Positions 46,080 through 55,581 of a DNA stretch of 64,000 nucleotides are shown here, piece by piece. The notes beneath the pieces are model-generated. The model was not told where the DNA came from. It ran no database searches and worked only from the letters and a program-made list of their open reading frames with translations. The stretch's first letter is position 1; every line of letters starts with the position of its first letter. The translations under genes and the position numbers were made by a program. This DNA is from Spirochaetia bacterium (GTDB lineage Bacteria; Spirochaetota; Spirochaetia; WTKD01; G963693115): contig CBDDCA010000005.1 of assembly GCA_965226055.1 (NCBI GenBank), positions 448,001-512,000 of the forward strand. The letters are read 5' to 3'.

Positions 46080-46311
46080 TAACACATATGTACATGAAGT
46101 CTATAGTATACAAAAATATAAAAAAGAATCAATAAACATATATACATAAAATTTTCTCATAAATTATCGATATTTATTATAAAAACTCAATCAATGCATT
46201 TCTATTTCTGTATTATTTTTAAGTAGTAATTAATATATAAAGTAAAGTATTGTTAATAGCTAACATGCAAAACACTATTGGTGTTTTGTTTTTTTATTGG
46301 AGGTATTTGCT

Positions 46312-47253
46312 ATGGGACAATATCAGGATACTCTGTGTATAACCCATTTATTTTTACAATATTCTGAAAAACAAAAAGAGAACATACCAGATGCACAATT
46401 TTATTATGATGAATTATTTAGTGCAATTAGAAAACATGTATATACATATCCACAAAGACTTAACTCACATAACACTCTTGAAATAAGCAGTGAATTTCTT
46501 ATATTCATGGAAAATAAAATTAACTCTTATATTAGTAATTTTGAATATACAGGAGTCCCTTTTGAATACTACTTAAATACTATCTTAAAATTTCAATTCT
46601 ATAGTTTCTTAAAACAATATAAACAAGAAATACAGGAATATAAGTTTTTTGAAAATGCTTCTGTGTACAACATTTTGGATATACCAACATATACTAATGA
46701 ACAATCTATAAAATATGAAAAGCCAGAAATGTCCCTTCCTTTTGCCATTAAAACACTTAATGATATTGTAAAAAATTCAAAACACAGCAAAGCTTTCAAA
46801 AAACGTCTATGGTGGTTTACATTAAAATATATGCATATTCTAAAAGAAAGCAATATTACTATATTATTACAGACCTGTGAAGAAAGCATGTCAAAATTTT
46901 TATTTTTTAAGTCACGGTTAAAAAAGCACATCACAGCGTATGAAGAAAAGATACATAAAATTAGAATACAAAAAAATCTCTATTTTTCTAAATGTAGAAA
47001 AATAGAACTTCGATTAGAAGAGACATTAACAAACAAAGAATATGAAAAACTACAGAATCTTTTACAAAAATATAAAGCACGGTATCAAGCAATATTTGAA
47101 AAATATGAAAGATATAGCGTACAGGCACTCATTTCTAATGAAGAGTTATCTCAGTTATTACATGTACCAAAAGGAACAATTGATTCTGGACTTTATTTCT
47201 TTCATATCAAATGTAAGGAGCAGTATAAAAACCATGCCTATACACTAAAATAA
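46312..47253 (+). CDS. Putative sigma70-family-like or HTH transcription factor
   Basis: Region-2-like FEYTGVPFEYYL; C-terminal region-4-like HTH ISNEELSQLLHVPKGTIDSGLY; SD GGAGGT before ATG 46312. Confidence 0.55.
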   Translation: MGQYQDTLCITHLFLQYSEKQKENIPDAQFYYDELFSAIRKHVYTYPQRLNSHNTLEISSEFLIFMENKINSYISNFEYTGVPFEYYLNTILKFQFYSFLKQYKQEIQEYKFFENASVYNILDIPTYTNEQSIKYEKPEMSLPFAIKTLNDIVKNSKHSKAFKKRLWWFTLKYMHILKESNITILLQTCEESMSKFLFFKSRLKKHITAYEEKIHKIRIQKNLYFSKCRKIELRLEETLTNKEYEKLQNLLQKYKARYQAIFEKYERYSVQALISNEELSQLLHVPKGTIDSGLYFFHIKCKEQYKNHAYTLK

Positions 47254-47359
47254 TTGCATTTTTTTCATCATAATAGTGCATAATCATATATACTATATTT
47301 AATAGTAACATTACTAAAAACAATATGTATGATAGTTACTATAATAACTAATACATTAA

Positions 47360-47433
47360 CGGGCTGTAGCGTAGTTGGTTAGCGCACTAGTCTGGGGGAC
47401 TAGGGGTCGCTGGTTCGAGTCCAGTCAGCCCGA
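47360..47433 (+). tRNA. tRNA-Pro(GGG), CCA not encoded
   Basis: Acceptor CGGGCTG/CAGCCCG; anticodon arm CTAGT-CTGGGGG-ACTAG; T-loop GTTCGAG. Confidence 0.95.
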
Positions 47434-47476
47434 TTATTTTTATCCTCATACCAGATCAAAGGAGTATAATCATTAC

Positions 47477-49882
47477 ATGAAACTTGAATATCTTTTATTT
47501 AACACAGTAATCGTTATTTTTCCACTCATATCCTCAATAGTTATCAGTATTCAAAAAACACAAGAAGCAAAACAAAAACGAAAAGCATTATTTTTTTTCT
47601 TTATAAGTTGTTTCATAACCGCTATTCCTTTTATTATCTGGGATGTATATGTTACGGACTTACACTGGTATTTTAATAAAAAATATATAACAGGATTACA
47701 TATTTTCAATCTTCCAATAGAAGAAATTCTCTTTTTCTTTACTATCCCCTATGCTACAGGGAGCTTATGGTTGATACTGTTTAATTCACATACACATAAT
47801 GGAGTTGTACACAGTTTTATACAAGACGGATACATGCATAGAGCAAAGGTTGTACATACCATGCGATGGATATATCCTTTGAGTATTGTTCTCCTATTTG
47901 TAGCGTTCTGGCTTCTTACCTATACCTCAAATAGTATAAACATAAACAATCATATTGAAAACGATACTATATATTTTGGCTATACTAAATTGACCGTAAT
48001 TGCACTTTGTCTTGCTATACTCTTTGATTATGCATTGGGCAGTAGATTGCTCCAGCAAATACGCTTTTACCCATTTATAGCACTATATGCTACTCTTAAT
48101 TTCATATTCAATGGGTATCTTACTGGACGCCCTATTGTATTATACAAAGAAGGACAATATTTAGGCATTCGGCTTGGCAGTACCCCTATAGAAGATTTTT
48201 TCTATGGATTAGCTTTGTTTATATTTGTGTTATCTTTACTGCATCACTTTACTGCAACAAAATCTGTTGAATCGCTGTTAAAAAAAATAATTCGCTTTCG
48301 ATTAAAAAATTATAAAATACAATATAACACTATTGATTATTCACTTCCTCTCTATTTATCAGAGAGCATTGCCAATAAAAACAAGAAAATAAAAGTAGCA
48401 GTAATAGGAGGAGGACTTGCAGGAATATCTTCTGCAATTATGCTAGCAGAACGAGGTTTTGAAGTACATCTTTTTGAAAAAAATAAGCATCTTGGAGGAA
48501 AATGTGGTGCATGGAAAAAAAATATAACAGGGATAGAAAACAGTACTATTGATCATGGATTCCATGGCTTTTTCCCTTGCTACTATAACTTACTTGATTT
48601 TTTAAGAACACATAACATACTACAAAAACATACTAAACGTATAGACAGATACACCATAGTAAACAAAGAACAAAAAATTACTCATCTTGATAATGCTTCT
48701 ACTACTCCTATCTACAACCTATTTGATTTACATAAAAAAAAGGTATTCAATCTCTTTCGTGCATTTTTTACTATTTCTAATCTTAAACTTATAGCAACAC
48801 TTAATTTTGATACACATAAAACTATTAAAAAGTATGATGATATTTCATTTCTTGATTTTAAAAAGCAAGCTCACTTACATACAGATATATCTTTTATTTT
48901 AACAATATTTGCTCGTGCTTTTTTTGCAAGTGAAGACAAACTTTCAACGGCACAGCTACTTAAGAATTTTCATATATATTACTTAAGCAATAACGAAGGG
49001 TTATTATATCATTACATATATCCCAATTATATAGATGGTTTTCTTACACCATTACAAGAGCTAATGGAACAGTATTCCATTACTATCCACAACAATACCC
49101 CTATTCATACTATCACAAGAGAACATAGTGATAATACCATGTATACATTCAATATAGAAGATGAAAATCACACTGTATACAAACAGTATAATGAAGTTAT
49201 TATTGCAAGCGATATACATGCCACTAAAAAAATTGTAGAAAATAGCCCTTGTTTTACTACTGCCTTACACAATCATACAGAAACAAATAATGCTACTAAT
49301 CAGATACAATCTCAAACAGTCACACAACAACTACAACATATTCCCATCAACCAAAGGTACTCTGTGTATCGCATTTGGATAAAAAATTGTACTATCCCTT
49401 TCGATAAATATTCTTTATTTACCAGTTTTGAGCGAATACACATATTAGATACAATCGCACAAGTAGATTTTTATGACGATGCTAGCAAAGTATGGGCAAA
49501 AGAGAATAACGGACATGTATTAGAATTACATTGTTATGCCGTGCCAGACTCTCTGCATGATGAACAAAGCATAAAAGAAGCGTTCTTACAAGACTTAGCA
49601 TATTATTTTTCTCAATTTACTCCTGATACTTTAGTGCATGAGGATTTACAGATAAACGATAATTTTACCCCATTTACTGTTGGACTTGATTCATATAAAC
49701 CTACAACTGACTCTGGTATTAAGGGCTGTTACTTTGCAGGAGATTGGGTATCACTCCCTGTACCATGTAGCTTACTAGAAGCCGCTCATACAAGTGCCCG
49801 ATTTGCAGCAAATAAGATAGTATCAAAGTATGATTTACAAGAATTTTCTATACATTCCGTTCCATTAAAAGGACTCATATAA
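47477..49882 (+). CDS. Fusion of two membrane lycopene-cyclase domains (CrtYc/Yd type) and a CrtU-like FAD-dependent aryl-carotenoid synthase
   Basis: Cyclase motifs PFIIWD..LPIEEILFF and FNGYLT..PIEDFFYG; then VAVIGGGLAG, HGFHGFFPCYYNL, FARAFFA, FHIYYLSNNEGL, VLELHCYA, FAGDWV..LLEAAHTS. Confidence 0.85.
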   Translation: MKLEYLLFNTVIVIFPLISSIVISIQKTQEAKQKRKALFFFFISCFITAIPFIIWDVYVTDLHWYFNKKYITGLHIFNLPIEEILFFFTIPYATGSLWLILFNSHTHNGVVHSFIQDGYMHRAKVVHTMRWIYPLSIVLLFVAFWLLTYTSNSININNHIENDTIYFGYTKLTVIALCLAILFDYALGSRLLQQIRFYPFIALYATLNFIFNGYLTGRPIVLYKEGQYLGIRLGSTPIEDFFYGLALFIFVLSLLHHFTATKSVESLLKKIIRFRLKNYKIQYNTIDYSLPLYLSESIANKNKKIKVAVIGGGLAGISSAIMLAERGFEVHLFEKNKHLGGKCGAWKKNITGIENSTIDHGFHGFFPCYYNLLDFLRTHNILQKHTKRIDRYTIVNKEQKITHLDNASTTPIYNLFDLHKKKVFNLFRAFFTISNLKLIATLNFDTHKTIKKYDDISFLDFKKQAHLHTDISFILTIFARAFFASEDKLSTAQLLKNFHIYYLSNNEGLLYHYIYPNYIDGFLTPLQELMEQYSITIHNNTPIHTITREHSDNTMYTFNIEDENHTVYKQYNEVIIASDIHATKKIVENSPCFTTALHNHTETNNATNQIQSQTVTQQLQHIPINQRYSVYRIWIKNCTIPFDKYSLFTSFERIHILDTIAQVDFYDDASKVWAKENNGHVLELHCYAVPDSLHDEQSIKEAFLQDLAYYFSQFTPDTLVHEDLQINDNFTPFTVGLDSYKPTTDSGIKGCYFAGDWVSLPVPCSLLEAAHTSARFAANKIVSKYDLQEFSIHSVPLKGLI

Positions 49883-49894
49883 GAAAAATAATAA

Positions 49895-49968
49895 TGGGCC
49901 CACTAGGACTTGAACCTAGGACACACGGATTATGAGTCCGTTGCTCTAACCAGCTGAGCTATAGGCCC
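49895..49968 (-). tRNA. tRNA with CAT anticodon (probably Ile2/lysidine; elongator Met not excluded), CCA not encoded
   Basis: GGGCCTATAGCTCAGCTGGTTAGAGC; ACGGA-CTCATAA-TCCGT; GTTCAAG. Confidence 0.93.
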
Positions 49969-50077
49969 TTTAGCTTTATTGTATAGTAATTCATAAATAA
50001 AAGCAATGCCAATGTAATGTAAAAATATCAGCTTAATTGAAGGATCATATTAAGTACTATTGTTATATACTATTATT

Positions 50078-50931: not shown

Positions 50932-53900
50932 CTACGATGAGGGACATGCTACTTTATCATTCTTAGTCTTTGGGTACTGTGCTTTTTTACCAGCCATAGC
51001 TGAACCTATAACCATATTTGCTACGTCAATGTCAATTTTACACAATTTCCATGATGATAAATTTTGATCAAAATTAATGGCATCTTCAAATACACCACTA
51101 ACTAGCTTAATATTCCTAACATTCCAATTTCCTATATCTTGATTAAAGGCTCTTGCCTCAAAAAACATCAAGGATATATCAGTTACTTCCTCAATATTCC
51201 AATTTCCTATATCTTGATTAAAGGCTCTTGTTCCCCTAAACATACCCCCCATATTCGTTACATTACTAGTATTCCACCGTGTTATATCTCCATTAAAAGT
51301 ACTATCTTGATAAAACAATTGATACATATTAGTAATAGCACTCGTATCTATCATGTTGAGGTTGGGGCTAGGGTTGCTACTCTTCCCTCCTGTAGCTTGC
51401 CTTGTTTTTTCTTCGCTGATAATAGTTTGTAGTGCTGATCTTGTTGTTGGTCTGTAATAGGTTTCTGCTTTTCCTGATGGTGCTGTTCTTAGCTCTGTCT
51501 GTATAACGATAGTGGCAGGTACTTTTTTCTTTGAAGCGGTTATTGTACATTGTACTACATCGTAGCTATATTCAGTAATAGCAGTGTCTCGTATATTGGA
51601 TTTGTTTGCTATGCCTGTTACAGTAACTGTTTTGCTACTCTGTTCAAACGATACTGCTAGCCCTGTCTCTTTTTTGATTTTCTCTGCATCTGCCTCTTGT
51701 ATATTGGCATCACAGGTAAAGGCATTGCCACTGGGTGTGCTTGCTAATACTCTTGTAGTATTTGATGCGAGTGCTGTGCCTACTGTTGCTGAAACTATGC
51801 TAGTGTTTCCTATAGATATTGCACTTACTTCAAATTCATGGCGTTCTCCTGTTGATGCTTTTGTAGGATCGGTGCTGTTTACTGCTTGTACTACTATTTC
51901 GTAGGTCGTTCCGTTTGTCAATCCTGTCAGGGTAGTGTTGGTTGTTCCTGCTGCTACTGTTGTGGGGCTTGAGTCTGCTTGTTTTATTGCTGCTACATTT
52001 CTTGCACTGCCACCTTTGGCTACTTTGTATACTTTGTACGATACCTGTGCTACTGTTAGGGTAGCTCCTGTATTTGCTTTGTGGCTTGCACTGAGGCTGG
52101 GAGCTGTCCACGATACTCTCATACCTGTCTGGGCTACTCTTGTCTGTATAGTTGATACTTCTGCAGGGGCTGTCGCTTGCGATGCGGTCGTTACGCTTGC
52201 CACTGACGATGCTACTTTTTTGCTTGGGTCTGTTTTTACTGCTACTTCTACCACAAAGTAATACTTTGTCGCTCCTTTTATTGCTACTACTGGTGCTGTG
52301 TCTGATGACAAGCCTAAACTGGCAAGGGCTGGTACTGTGTACACTCCGCTACTTGCACTGCCTAGGTTTATCTTTCTGCCTGCAAGTACTTCTGCTACTG
52401 TAGGGTCAGTGTCTTTCTGTAAGCCATACACTGTGTATGCTAGCTGATTGCTTGCTGTTATGCTTGTGCCATCGTAGTCTTTCGCTCCTGTAAATGTGCT
52501 TAGCTCGGTAAGTACCAGCTTTATTGTTCCTGTAGTATTTGTTGACGGTGATACTACCAGCTTTCCTGTGAGTAATGACTGATTTGGTGCTACTGCTTTG
52601 GAAGTATAGATTTCCTTTATTTCTGTTACATCGGTGTAAAAGCCTGCAGGAAAGAGCTTGTCACTATTTGTTGCATCGTAATTGGGGGATGTTGTGTTTA
52701 CTATCCTCACTCCTATGTAGTAGTCCTTTGCTGTTTCTATGGGCGTTGCTCCTGCATTGCTTCCACTGGTACTGTCTACTATTGCTATGGATATTGTGTC
52801 TTGAGTTGTTCCTGTTGCTTTTGTGTATTTTGCTACTCTTGTACTGGTTTTTTTCAATGCCCACAAGGCCGATACACTGGCAGGCTTTCCAGTGCTATCT
52901 TCTTTCTTGAGGTATAGCACATAGTAGGCAAGGTCTGTCGCTTCAAGGGCATTGCCATTTGCTTTGCTCACTCCTGCTATAGCTGAGGCATTGAGCTGTA
53001 CTGTTATGACTTTTTTCCCTCTGTTGCTTCCTGTTGTAGGCACTGCAAATACTACTGCATTACTGTTAGTGTAGGTTGTTACTTTTGGTGTGCTTGGGGG
53101 AGCGGTAAGCGTTGCTTTCTTTATTGTTACTGATGCTCCTATGCTATAGGCAGGATTGAGGCTGTTTATTGCTTCTACTCCTGCGGTATAGTCTGCTCCT
53201 TTTGTTCCTATAAATGTTGCTTTTAATGGAGTGCTGTTTCCTGCTAGCTCTCTTGTTTGTACTCCTGCAAGGGCTTTTATTTCGTCTAGTGTCTTTGTGC
53301 TGTGATCTCCTGCTGCTATGTATACTTTGTACTGTATTTGTGCCTGTGTGAGTTTTGCTCCACTGGGAGCTTTGTTATCATTGGTAATGTCTCCTGCACT
53401 AAATGTATAGACTGCTTTTGCAGTTGTTTGGGTTACTGACTCTACGGAGAGCTTTGCATCTTTGGGAGCGGGCGGTGCTGTTGAGGTGCTATCATATACT
53501 GCTACTGCATCACTCAGCGCGGTTACGGGGCTTACTCTGTTATTTGCTATTTGCAGAAAATCAAAGCGATAATTCTTGGCATTTGCTTGGCTCTTGGGTA
53601 CTTCTACGCCATCTGCTATCCCAAAGCTAATGGTGGTTGCTGTGTTTGTTATGCTTTTTTCTGCTATTAAGGTAGCTCCATCTTTCATACGCAAAGTATA
53701 GTATCGTCCTATGCCTGGAGCATTCTTAAAAGTTGCTTTTATTTGTATAGCTCCTGTTGTGTCTAGGGTAGGCTTGCTTTGAAAGAGATCCTCTGAGGGA
53801 GCTGTGAGTGAGTTGGGGGTGGTTATGTCTTTTGTTGCTTGGGTGCTTTTATTTTCTGAGTAATCAAGCGTGAGTATTGTTATGGTATATGTTTTTCCTT

Positions 53901-55581
53901 GCACAAGTTCTTCTACAGAGAGTGCTGTCGTGGGATAGGGTATTTTCTTCTCGCTCAGTACTGTGGTGCTTGTGCTTTTTTCTGCTATGCTTATACTGTA
54001 TTCTTTTATGTCTTTGTTCTTGGCTTTTGTCCCATCGGGGGCTGTCCATATTATCTGTGTGCCTATCTTTGCTGCTGATACAAAGGGATAGCTTGCTTGT
54101 ATGTTTGTCACTGCATCGGGGGCGGTGCTGTCTGCTGATGTGGTTACTGTGGCTGTTGCTTCTGTTCCTTTGTTGCCTGCACTGTCCATTGATACGACTG
54201 CCACTGTATACTCGGTGGTAGCTTTGAGGCCTGTTATCTGTGTGTTGCGTACTGTTCTCTCTGTTATTGTCACTGTCTTTGCAGGGGTACTGCTGTCTTT
54301 TTCTGTTGCTGTTATACTCACTCCTGCATAGTCTCGTACATCGGGAGCTTGCCAGCCTACTACTAGGCTTGTTGCTCCTCCTGTGGCACTCACATTGCTT
54401 ACAGGCTCTGTGCTTTTGTCTGTTGTTGCTTGTTCTTTTGATACTGCAGTGGAGTACTTTCCGTTTTGAGAAACATACACCTCTACTTTGTAAGTAAGCG
54501 TGCCATAGAGTTTTGTGAGTGCTATGCCATCTTTTGCCACATACACAGTGGCGTACTCTCTGTTGTCTGCACTTGCTCCGCTGACATTTGTTGCACTTGT
54601 GTCTTTATCTATTGTCTCCTCTGCTACTACTGTATTGGTTGCGGTTGCTATCACTCGTACTTGGAGGCTTTTTTCTGTACTTCCTGTTCCAAAGTTAAAA
54701 CTCCCCCACTTAATAAGCAGGCTTTCATCGGCTGGGCTATTGCTTTTATCGTTTGCTGTTACTGTAAGATCTGCCTCTGGGAGTGGCGTTACTGTCTGTG
54801 AGAGTGCTGATGGCACTATGCCTCTGAGTGCTTGCTTTGCCGTGCTTTTGTTACCGTTGCTATCTTTGTACACTACTACTATATCATAGCTGATGCCATC
54901 TATAGTGGGGACAGCAATGCTCACTTCTCCTTGTGTTACATCTTGTACTGTTACTTCTGTCTTTACCCCAGTAGTTCTTTCTATCACCTGTATTGTGGCT
55001 TCGGCTATGTCTGTTTTGCCTGACGAGAGCAGTGCTTTGTCCCATGTTAGCTTTATACCATTTGTTGCTGATTCTACTGCTACTTGGGTAAAGGTGTCCT
55101 GTGGTGCAGTTTCATCAGTAAGTGTTGTCACAGATCGGGTTATTTTTGGTGATACTTCTGAGTCTGAGCCTGAGTCTGATTTTTGAGCTTCTATCTCTAC
55201 AGTATAATCGGTAGTAGCGTGCAAGCCTCTGAGAGTGTAGGGTCTGTTTTGTTGAAACAATGCACGATATTCTATTGCAGGAACACGCACTTGTATTGAC
55301 TGGGCTGGTGCGGTAGATGTAGCTTTTACGACTACATGTGTGGCTTCGCTGGGAGCTTGCCAGCGTAACGAGAGTGTCCCATCGTTGCTTGCTGCTTGTA
55401 TCTGCACATTGGACACTGATGCGAGTGTCGGGGTTACTGAATTTCCCCCTCCGCCTGATGAACTGCTACTTCCCTCCGAACATCCTACGAGTACGAGGGT
55501 AGTCATTGCTAGCATCAATGCAACAACTATAGGTATATTCTGCTTACTTTGTAGCTTACTATTTAGATGATATTTTTTCAT
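50932..55581 (-). CDS. Giant surface lipoprotein: multiple FN3-like domains plus C-terminal DUF285/BspA-type repeats
   Basis: LVLVG-C lipobox and Ser/Gly linker; FN3 signatures (LSLRWQAP, ITGLKATTEYTVAV, LTGLTNGTTYEIVV); 25-aa repeats AFNQDIGNWN. Confidence 0.9.
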   Translation of the reverse strand: MKKYHLNSKLQSKQNIPIVVALMLAMTTLVLVGCSEGSSSSSGGGGNSVTPTLASVSNVQIQAASNDGTLSLRWQAPSEATHVVVKATSTAPAQSIQVRVPAIEYRALFQQNRPYTLRGLHATTDYTVEIEAQKSDSGSDSEVSPKITRSVTTLTDETAPQDTFTQVAVESATNGIKLTWDKALLSSGKTDIAEATIQVIERTTGVKTEVTVQDVTQGEVSIAVPTIDGISYDIVVVYKDSNGNKSTAKQALRGIVPSALSQTVTPLPEADLTVTANDKSNSPADESLLIKWGSFNFGTGSTEKSLQVRVIATATNTVVAEETIDKDTSATNVSGASADNREYATVYVAKDGIALTKLYGTLTYKVEVYVSQNGKYSTAVSKEQATTDKSTEPVSNVSATGGATSLVVGWQAPDVRDYAGVSITATEKDSSTPAKTVTITERTVRNTQITGLKATTEYTVAVVSMDSAGNKGTEATATVTTSADSTAPDAVTNIQASYPFVSAAKIGTQIIWTAPDGTKAKNKDIKEYSISIAEKSTSTTVLSEKKIPYPTTALSVEELVQGKTYTITILTLDYSENKSTQATKDITTPNSLTAPSEDLFQSKPTLDTTGAIQIKATFKNAPGIGRYYTLRMKDGATLIAEKSITNTATTISFGIADGVEVPKSQANAKNYRFDFLQIANNRVSPVTALSDAVAVYDSTSTAPPAPKDAKLSVESVTQTTAKAVYTFSAGDITNDNKAPSGAKLTQAQIQYKVYIAAGDHSTKTLDEIKALAGVQTRELAGNSTPLKATFIGTKGADYTAGVEAINSLNPAYSIGASVTIKKATLTAPPSTPKVTTYTNSNAVVFAVPTTGSNRGKKVITVQLNASAIAGVSKANGNALEATDLAYYVLYLKKEDSTGKPASVSALWALKKTSTRVAKYTKATGTTQDTISIAIVDSTSGSNAGATPIETAKDYYIGVRIVNTTSPNYDATNSDKLFPAGFYTDVTEIKEIYTSKAVAPNQSLLTGKLVVSPSTNTTGTIKLVLTELSTFTGAKDYDGTSITASNQLAYTVYGLQKDTDPTVAEVLAGRKINLGSASSGVYTVPALASLGLSSDTAPVVAIKGATKYYFVVEVAVKTDPSKKVASSVASVTTASQATAPAEVSTIQTRVAQTGMRVSWTAPSLSASHKANTGATLTVAQVSYKVYKVAKGGSARNVAAIKQADSSPTTVAAGTTNTTLTGLTNGTTYEIVVQAVNSTDPTKASTGERHEFEVSAISIGNTSIVSATVGTALASNTTRVLASTPSGNAFTCDANIQEADAEKIKKETGLAVSFEQSSKTVTVTGIANKSNIRDTAITEYSYDVVQCTITASKKKVPATIVIQTELRTAPSGKAETYYRPTTRSALQTIISEEKTRQATGGKSSNPSPNLNMIDTSAITNMYQLFYQDSTFNGDITRWNTSNVTNMGGMFRGTRAFNQDIGNWNIEEVTDISLMFFEARAFNQDIGNWNVRNIKLVSGVFEDAINFDQNLSSWKLCKIDIDVANMVIGSAMAGKKAQYPKTKNDKVACPSS
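51121..51230 (-). repeat. 35-bp exact direct repeat at a 75-bp period (DUF285 units)
   Basis: ATTCCAATTTCCTATATCTTGATTAAAGGCTCTTG at 51121 and 51196. Confidence 0.85.

Follow-up and report, generated by a model that had tools for sequence, protein, structure and literature searches.

A lycopene cyclase fused to a CrtU-family flavoenzyme

We analysed a 64,000-nucleotide stretch of the genome of a Spirochaetia bacterium (GenBank assembly GCA_965226055.1, contig CBDDCA010000005.1, positions 448,001 to 512,000; hereafter the window, whose coordinates are used throughout). At 47477..49882 the window contains a gene for one 801-residue polypeptide, in which a lycopene cyclase of the CrtYc/Yd type is joined to a flavin adenine dinucleotide (FAD) enzyme of the CrtU/CruE family. 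Judging from its sequence, we think it probable that this single membrane-anchored polypeptide catalyses the final two reactions in the synthesis of an aryl carotenoid. The gene, its parts and the features on either side of it are as follows.

47360..47433, plus strand: tRNA-Pro(GGG), found by ARAGORN, directly 5' of the fused gene and also flanking it in the same-genus genome G001
47459..47465, plus strand: Shine-Dalgarno-like AAAGGAG, read from the sequence, 11 nt ahead of the ATG
47477..49882, plus strand: coding sequence of the fused enzyme (P0001, 801 aa), stop codon included; its translation has no internal stop
47486..47758, plus strand: lycopene cyclase half-domain 1 (residues about 4-94; TIGR03462, PF18916), with three predicted membrane helices and LPIEE
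47855..47920, plus strand: connecting membrane helix between the cyclase halves (residues about 127-148; AlphaFold2, hydropathy)
47981..48250, plus strand: lycopene cyclase half-domain 2 (residues about 169-258; PF18916), with three predicted membrane helices and TPIED
48251..48391, plus strand: Lys/Arg-rich linker (residues about 259-305) with a short helix at 267-275 (AlphaFold2; 7 Lys or Arg in residues 260-300)
48392..49879, plus strand: CrtU/CruE-family FAD domain (residues 306-801; PF01593, PF13450, GGGLAG dinucleotide-binding motif)
49895..49968, minus strand: tRNA-Met(CAT), found by ARAGORN, directly downstream on the opposite strand, an arrangement matched in G001

A single open frame on the plus strand, 47375..49882, covers the fused gene in the list of open reading frames (ORFs), with a mechanically assigned TTG start at 47375. 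The first 34 codons of this longer frame lie over tRNA-Pro(GGG), so the ATG at 47477, which the initial annotation had taken as the start, is the likely one; the AAAGGAG motif upstream agrees with it, and in a strain variant a 1-nt deletion at 47444 disrupts the longer frame and spares the ATG frame. The motifs quoted in that annotation are all found in the translation: LPIEE, TPIED, GGGLAG, HGFHGFFPCYYNL, FARAFFA, FHIYYLSNNEGL, VLELHCYA and GDWV...LLEAAHTS...AAN...SVP. A promoter scan around the gene was uninformative (22 sites, with 22.6 expected). The genome has three matches to FlaA (PF04620, the periplasmic-flagellum sheath family), compared to none in 14 control genomes, so by this single test the organism is a spirochaete.

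The fusion is real

The initial annotation suggested checking reads across the junction between the two domains, and we found the junction free of stops and frameshifts in two further assemblies. In G001 the fused gene is open, has 94% identity to ours and is flanked by the same tRNAs, within a syntenic block where nucleotide identity is 96%. Among the public assemblies compared over 47300-50000, one near-identical run (X2) may be where this DNA came from, and X5, a contig of 13.6 kb from a separate study, extends across the full interval with 25 substitutions, a 1-nt deletion 5' of the ATG and an in-frame 3-nt insertion, and its translation is open throughout 802 codons. A more distant protein, P0002 (798 aa, 71% identity), also has an intact frame, and together with 24 further fused proteins it aligns end to end with the query (this 26-protein alignment leaves out P0014, which had lower coverage). 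Between our genome (G000) and G001, the ratio of nonsynonymous to synonymous substitution rates (dN/dS) is 0.20 over the whole gene, with values of 0.29 in the cyclase part and 0.16 in the FAD part. We conclude that the fusion is genuine and not an assembly artefact.

That the gene might be an artefact, or a decaying pseudogene without function, could be argued from its position, alone between two tRNA genes and far from other crt genes, and from the copy in the related genome G005, which is very long-branched and occurs where crtB and crtI were not detected. No RNA run is listed with the stretch, which says nothing about expression either way. Given the frames intact in G000, G001, P0002 and the contig of the independent study, the dN/dS values of 0.16-0.29 across both parts, the end-to-end alignment of 25 further fused proteins, and a structural model that is confident over both domains, we regard this explanation as barely credible.

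The N-terminal part is a two-half lycopene cyclase

The initial annotation identified both halves of the protein correctly. In the N-terminal part, Pfam Lycopene_cyc (PF18916) matches twice, at residues ~4-94 and 169-258 (E = 3.2e-20; 72.9 bits, with a cut-off of 27), and NCBIfam TIGR03462 matches in two stretches (83.8 bits, with a cut-off of 39.4). The acidic PxE(E/D) motif that is a hallmark of the CrtYc/CrtYd cyclase family opens the third helix in both halves, as LPIEE (residues 80-84) and TPIED (residues 236-240). Across the 26 aligned fused proteins E239 and D240 do not vary, and E83 hardly does.

An AlphaFold2 model made from a 98-row alignment has a mean predicted local distance difference test score (pLDDT) of 91.9 and a predicted template modelling score of 0.89. 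It contains seven long helices (residues 4-25, 29-59, 81-101, 127-148, 168-187, 197-217 and 238-258), then a short helix and an alpha/beta FAD domain. Low confidence is limited to two lineage-specific insertions, one on each side of the connecting helix (pLDDT below 50 at 119-121 and 153-162), where the other fused proteins are gapped. Hydropathy also gives seven helices, with the Lys/Arg-rich loops predicted to lie on one side. The cyclase part is thus predicted to be polytopic, with three helices per half and a connecting helix. Hydropathy and the distribution of Lys and Arg place the 26-36 loop and the 260-300 linker on the same, presumably cytoplasmic, side, in which case the FAD domain would sit at the cytoplasmic face of the membrane. 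A segment like the linker is also found at the N-terminus of unfused CrtU-like relatives of ~500 aa, which align with the query from residue ~265. When the model was used in a fold search, the closest solved structure was the plant-type phytoene desaturase of rice (5MOG; template modelling score 0.82, normalised to the target), and no solved structure matched the cyclase part.

The C-terminal part belongs to the CrtU/CruE family

The FAD domain matches Pfam Amino_oxidase (PF01593) over residues 314-781 (E = 7.1e-28), and the profile matches of both the cyclase and the FAD domain are far beyond chance. NCBIfam names it best as HpnE (TIGR03467), at 82.5 bits with a cut-off of 283, followed by zeta-carotene desaturase (ZDS; TIGR02732, 73.4 bits, cut-off 622) and phytoene desaturase (PDS; TIGR02731, 50.0 bits, cut-off 569). 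This best name prompted us to consider that the C-terminal domain might be an HpnE-like hydroxysqualene oxidoreductase, or a non-carotenoid amine oxidase, acting in a squalene or other lipid pathway. The genome's sole SQS_PSY-family protein has similar leanings, with HpnD and HpnC as its names (81.9 and 72.9 bits), but the three scores are far under their cut-offs of 283, 279 and 250. We take the HpnE match to be uninformative, because the same sub-threshold match (94-173 bits) was present in 20 of 20 other CrtU-family relatives scanned. The HpnCDE route requires two SQS_PSY genes and this genome has one; moreover the domain is fused to a lycopene cyclase in a genome that has a crtI-family gene.

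Direct comparisons led to the same outcome. The references here are ORFs (orthologues) taken from named genomes and not the characterised proteins themselves; the outgroups, from the same genomes, are PDS-like genes together with one HpnE and two ZDS that each exceed the curated cut-off for their family. In phmmer searches the FAD domain scored 164-182 bits to CrtU/CruE-type ORFs of Chlorobiaceae and cyanobacteria, 142-165 bits to CrtU-type ORFs of Amycolatopsis and Mycolicibacterium, and 117-134 bits to those of Streptomyces, compared to 60 bits for ZDS, 32 for the PDS-like ORFs and 24 for a Streptomyces HpnE (which passes its own cut-off at 462.7 bits).

We then made an IQ-TREE phylogeny of 93 rows and 479 columns, with rows hand-picked from 104 and 150 listed matches and from named loci; it is a 'quick' search with support only from the Shimodaira-Hasegawa-like approximate likelihood ratio test (SH-aLRT), and the query rows deviate in composition. 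The query falls in a 47-row clade (SH-aLRT 100) with all the fused proteins and many unfused proteins of ~500 aa, the two forms being interleaved. This clade groups with the actinobacterial CrtU clade (SH-aLRT 99), and Chlorobi CrtU and cyanobacterial CruE-type proteins come next. The 82 CrtU/CruE-type rows together (SH-aLRT 97) exclude ZDS and PDS, which form a separate clade, and HpnE, which is the outgroup. The FAD domain is therefore a member of the CrtU/CruE family and not an HpnE, ZDS or PDS; its separation from HpnE and the other outgroups, in scores and tree, is what the initial annotation had expected. A squalene or other non-carotenoid role for it is highly improbable.

In 61 columns all 15 reference CrtU/CruE-type rows have the same residue, and the query matches it in 47. 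Eighteen of these columns are family-specific, their residue being present in no more than 2 of 11 outgroup rows, and of these the query retains 14, including H499 and H685.

The fusion is known from other phyla and rare in Spirochaetota

The initial annotation knew of no such fusion in spirochaetes, and considered crtY and crtU to be normally separate genes. Its view of the fusion as novel stands for Spirochaetota, where the architecture is rare, and does not stand more widely. Both domains are present in 16 of 104 matches from a protein collection clustered at 90%, and the fused architecture occurs in at least 14 of the best 150 representatives of a library clustered at 50%. In all, at least 25 other protein clusters have it, most of them named as Myxococcota. 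Those with organism names come from metagenome-assembled genomes (MAGs) of Myxococcales, Polyangiaceae and Nannocystaceae, and in databases such proteins are called 'lycopene cyclase domain-containing protein' or 'isorenieratene synthase'. A figure legend in a 2022 myxobacterial paper (PMC9304148) names a 'lycopene cyclase fused to CrtU', and this legend was the only name for the fusion that we found in the literature. Our literature search found no characterised fused protein of this type. The fusion is thus an already known, uncharacterised type from other phyla, and what is new is its occurrence in a spirochaete and the aromatic pigment that it implies.

Within Spirochaetota, the FAD domain matched none of 400 other sampled genomes at E <= 1e-30. 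The known carriers in the phylum are this genus, G005, and two MAGs in which the gene is unfused. Three CrtU-family proteins have other fusions (P0168, P0171 and P0150): two have an N-terminal UbiE-like methyltransferase and one has a C-terminal UbiA-type prenyltransferase.

An independent, convergent fusion in spirochaetes is not supported. In the free tree of cyclase domains the query clade lies outside a 22-row clade that contains the other 19 fused proteins, and a constraint uniting only the 23 fused rows was rejected by the approximately unbiased test (p-AU = 0.0006), because three short unfused rows nest among the fused ones. With those three rows added to the group the likelihood was higher than that of the free tree (+17.4) and the constraint was not rejected (p-AU = 0.81), both constrained groups having been chosen after inspection of the tree. 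Most simply, this spirochaete lineage would have received the gene by transfer in its already fused form. We also searched for an empty insertion site in the other four genomes of the family, via the ROK kinase gene upstream of the fused gene. Only G003 retains the ROK gene with its neighbouring 318-aa ORF, with tRNA-Pro about 6 kb off; synteny beyond the genus is so weak that it speaks to neither gain nor loss.

Related genes lie in carotenoid clusters

The reference locus of Streptomyces globisporus has the arrangement expected for crtU, which follows a CrtY-type cyclase gene and lies near a phytoene-synthase-family gene. We annotated three loci from non-spirochaete members of the query's 47-row subclade, and all three are crt clusters in which the CrtU-like gene is fused to a CrtYcd cyclase gene, adjacent to one, or one gene away from it. 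The Melioribacteraceae cluster includes a CarH-like regulator, crtI, crtB, crtYcd, a Rieske oxygenase gene and the CrtU-like gene; the Binatia cluster has crtI, crtB, the CrtU-like gene, crtYcd and a Rieske oxygenase gene; and a proteobacterial MAG has a polyprenyl synthase gene followed by a fused gene, with a divergent CrtI-like gene, a glycosyltransferase gene and an acyltransferase gene. In the two spirochaete MAGs with unfused CrtU-like genes, the gene lies between glycosyltransferase and acyltransferase genes (L009), or has an acyltransferase gene about 2 kb upstream (L007). A link between cyclase and CrtU-like enzyme thus recurs, whether as neighbouring genes or within one polypeptide.

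The Rieske oxygenase genes of the Melioribacteraceae and Binatia clusters (L008:10671-11660 and L006:12180-13361) stand beside the CrtU-like or cyclase gene, and their best NCBIfam name, a weak one, is methylsterol monooxygenase. These oxygenases may oxidise a ring methyl group, like CruH in cyanobacteria.

Candidate genes for the rest of the pathway lie elsewhere in the genome

The initial annotation noted that crtE, crtB and crtI are missing from the window, and proposed that the substrate is made elsewhere in the genome or obtained from a host or diet. The first part holds: genes like crtE and crtB, and a crtI, are on other contigs. A 397-aa polyprenyl synthase gene adjoins the SQS_PSY-family gene on contig C3, which is the only SQS_PSY gene in the genome, and a 491-aa crtI-family desaturase (379 bits, cut-off 238) is encoded on contig C6. 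The closest equivalog model to this CrtI is that for the bifunctional phytoene desaturase/3,4-desaturase (522.6 bits, cut-off 640). Since these genes are present, a host or dietary source is unnecessary. The divergent SQS_PSY protein falls below every equivalog cut-off, for which reason the synthesis of C40 phytoene is itself something that we infer. Neither CruF (PF04240) nor CrtC (PF07143) was found in the genome, which is 89% complete. The genome's sole Rieske protein, of 99 aa, is encoded beside a 394-aa ORF that looks SufD-like; it probably functions in iron-sulfur cluster assembly.

Across the family's six genomes the pathway is unevenly distributed. All its parts are present in G000 and G001; G003 has a separate CrtYcd gene and two CrtI genes without a CrtU-like gene; and G002 and G004 lack the cyclase. 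In G005 (88% complete) a very divergent fused gene is present and yet neither SQS_PSY nor crtI was found. The G005 gene (L116:10198-12399, contig C44) follows a glycosyltransferase gene and has an end branch of 1.7-2.7 changes per column, and its function may have changed or be decaying.

The enzyme might alternatively work on carotenoids taken from a host or food, and not on self-made lycopene. The separation of the fused gene from other crt genes, the divergence of the SQS_PSY protein, and the state of G005 fit such scavenging. We nevertheless think it very unlikely, in view of the polyprenyl synthase, SQS_PSY and crtI-family genes in both G000 and G001, and of the cyclase domain, which would be needless for beta-carotene obtained from food.

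About 2 kb from crtI on contig C6, genes for a SMODS/DncV-like nucleotidyltransferase and a patatin-like phospholipase lie side by side (L133:4231-6077), a pairing typical of the anti-phage systems called CBASS (cyclic oligonucleotide-based antiphage signalling systems).

Proposed function

We propose that the N-terminal part of the fused enzyme would turn psi-ends into beta-rings within the membrane, acting on lycopene or on a more desaturated CrtI product, and that the Lys/Arg-rich linker would position the FAD domain on the cytoplasmic face. There the FAD domain would dehydrogenate the beta-ring and move a methyl group, yielding an aromatic end group of the phi or chi type and a pigment like isorenieratene, renieratene or chlorobactene. 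The substrate would be supplied by the unlinked polyprenyl diphosphate synthase, the phytoene-synthase-family enzyme and the CrtI-family desaturase. From the comparisons above we infer the aromatic product, the ring type, a benefit from proximity or channelling and the membrane topology; an aromatic product is likely. More tentatively, we regard it as quite possible that a small, non-phototrophic spirochaete lineage has gained by horizontal transfer a one-chain enzyme converting lycopene to an aryl carotenoid, needing only three further genes. The flavin domain is docked onto the membrane cyclase in a way that is conserved and modelled with confidence, and on this reading it would receive the beta-ring intermediate directly from the cyclase active site.

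Several points weigh against an aromatic product. No other crt gene lies within the 64-kb window, so the fused gene is outside any crt cluster; the SQS_PSY protein is far under all equivalog cut-offs (HpnD, HpnC, CrtB); and in G005, at 88% completeness, the fused gene is present although neither SQS_PSY nor crtI was found. NCBIfam has no CrtU model, which leaves the sub-threshold HpnE match as the best name. The references are orthologues of characterised enzymes, and the tree is a quick one with compositionally deviant query rows. Enzymes have been characterised in none of the lineages represented in the query's 47-row subclade, and its function is taken by extrapolation from sister clades that are 25-31% identical. 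Lastly, the query departs from the references at 4 of the 18 family-specific columns (K422, Q493, S504 and Y511). At position 493 the reference residue is present in 23 of 26 subclade rows and it is the query that differs, whereas at 422, 504 and 511 it is kept in only 0, 3 and 0 of the 26.

Some of these points could also be read as signs of a cyclase joined to a CrtU-family flavoenzyme that stops short of full aromatisation, performing plain desaturation of the ring or chain, or some other change to the end group, so that the pigment is cyclic and non-aromatic. The distance from the CrtU/CruE references, the want of a characterised lineage in the subclade and the three positions altered in all or most of its rows fit this reading. 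So does the CrtI: as it is closest to a 3,4-desaturase model, the substrate may not be plain lycopene. The known carotenoids of spirochaetes are non-aromatic torulene derivatives, and according to PMC4511686 spirochaete carotenoids are presumed to be derivatives of beta-carotene. On the other side, the subclade is nested between actinobacterial CrtU and a lineage of Chlorobi CrtU with cyanobacterial CruE. Both of these make aromatic rings, which renders aromatisation the parsimonious choice of ancestral activity, and 14 of the 18 family-specific residues are retained. In addition, two of the three annotated clusters have a gene like a Rieske methyl-oxygenase beside the CrtU-like gene, which recalls the CruE and CruH pair of the aromatic synechoxanthin pathway described in PMC7395447. 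On balance we consider a non-aromatic product unlikely, though well short of negligible, and we favour aromatisation by the fused enzyme.

Other features of the window

Just 5' of tRNA-Pro, the 318-aa ORF (46297-47253, plus strand) adjoins the ROK kinase gene; it has no Pfam match, and is 98% conserved in the same-genus genome and 33% in G003. On the other side, 3' of tRNA-Met, the segment 50024-51106 contains a 127-aa ORF that lacks a Pfam match. The corresponding syntenic region of G001 gave no blastn match to this segment, which may be a short variable stretch. Beyond it (50932-55581, minus strand) is a gene for a predicted surface protein of 1549 aa with fibronectin type III repeats and a C-terminal DUF285 domain. 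This region has a G+C content of 0.41-0.44, compared to ~0.33 elsewhere, and a strong AT skew. Relative to the same-genus genome the gene has 85% nucleotide and 77% amino acid identity, with flanks at 96% nucleotide identity. The first 2000 nucleotides of the window resemble the surface-protein gene region in their raised G+C content (0.44) and strong negative AT skew (-0.39).

Comparison with known systems

The closest counterparts of the fused enzyme are the Myxococcota proteins, which share its order of cyclase half, connecting helix, cyclase half, basic linker and CrtU-like FAD domain. The 26 proteins of this type align over their full length at 30-40% identity, with the acidic cyclase motifs and the FAD motifs in common. 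The query differs in coming from a small AT-rich spirochaete genome, in lying outside a crt cluster, and in its lineage-specific insertions, of which two flank the connecting helix and a third is in the FAD domain.

Actinobacterial CrtU (isorenieratene synthase) has been characterised in Streptomyces griseus, Brevibacterium linens and Mycobacterium. In B. linens, work by Krubasik and Sandmann from 2000, going by its title, is said to concern CrtYc/Yd-type cyclase genes in aromatic carotenoid synthesis. Like the query's FAD domain, actinobacterial CrtU has an FAD amine-oxidase fold without a Rieske domain, belongs to the same tree group (SH-aLRT 99), and is paired in the genome with a lycopene cyclase. 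Unlike it, actinobacterial CrtU is encoded by a separate gene, has 23-27% identity to the query (tblastn), and lacks the deviations of the query's subclade at a few positions otherwise invariant in the family. Chlorobi CrtU and cyanobacterial CruE, the phi- and chi-ring synthases, are in the same family clade and have the family-specific histidines and aromatic residues, but they are farther away in the tree, occur in phototrophs, and have a C-terminal Rieske domain (PF00355) that is absent from the query.

For the cyclase part, the archaeal and bacterial CrtYcd lycopene beta-cyclases and the fungal CarRA/CrtYB proteins also have two TIGR03462 halves in one chain with an extra membrane helix. 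In CarRA/CrtYB the cyclase is fused to another carotenoid enzyme, phytoene synthase, which acts before the cyclase, whereas the partner in the query is a CrtU-type flavoenzyme that would act after it.

According to PMC7395447, CrtU and CruE are beta-carotene desaturase/transmethylases, whose products are isorenieratene, or renierapurpurin, renieratene and isorenieratene, and the known producers of aromatic carotenoids were recently extended to cyanobacteria. Isorenieratene synthesis has been predicted from annotation alone in Binatota (10.1101/2020.09.14.296780) and Myxococcota (PMC10576062). Our literature search found no paper on aromatic carotenoids, or on CrtU, in spirochaetes.

If the CrtU-like clade found in genomes labelled Myxococcota, Binatia, Melioribacteraceae and Spirochaetota, whose members are often fused to the cyclase or encoded beside it, is active, it would widen the list of organisms that produce aromatic carotenoids. 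As a compact two-step module, the fused form would allow a lycopene producer to be converted to an aryl-carotenoid producer with one gene, and it is well suited to asking whether substrate is channelled from a membrane cyclase to a peripheral flavoenzyme. Aromatic carotenoids and their fossil derivatives (isorenieratane, chlorobactane and renieratane) serve as markers of green and purple sulfur bacteria. If our proposal is true, spirochaetes would be an unrecognised non-phototrophic source of isorenieratene-type pigments, and also of the aryl isoprenoid biomarkers that are taken as signs of photic-zone euxinia. For Spirochaetota it would mean a new class of pigment, in a phylum where carotenoids have been documented in aerotolerant species and linked to aerotolerance (PMC4511686).

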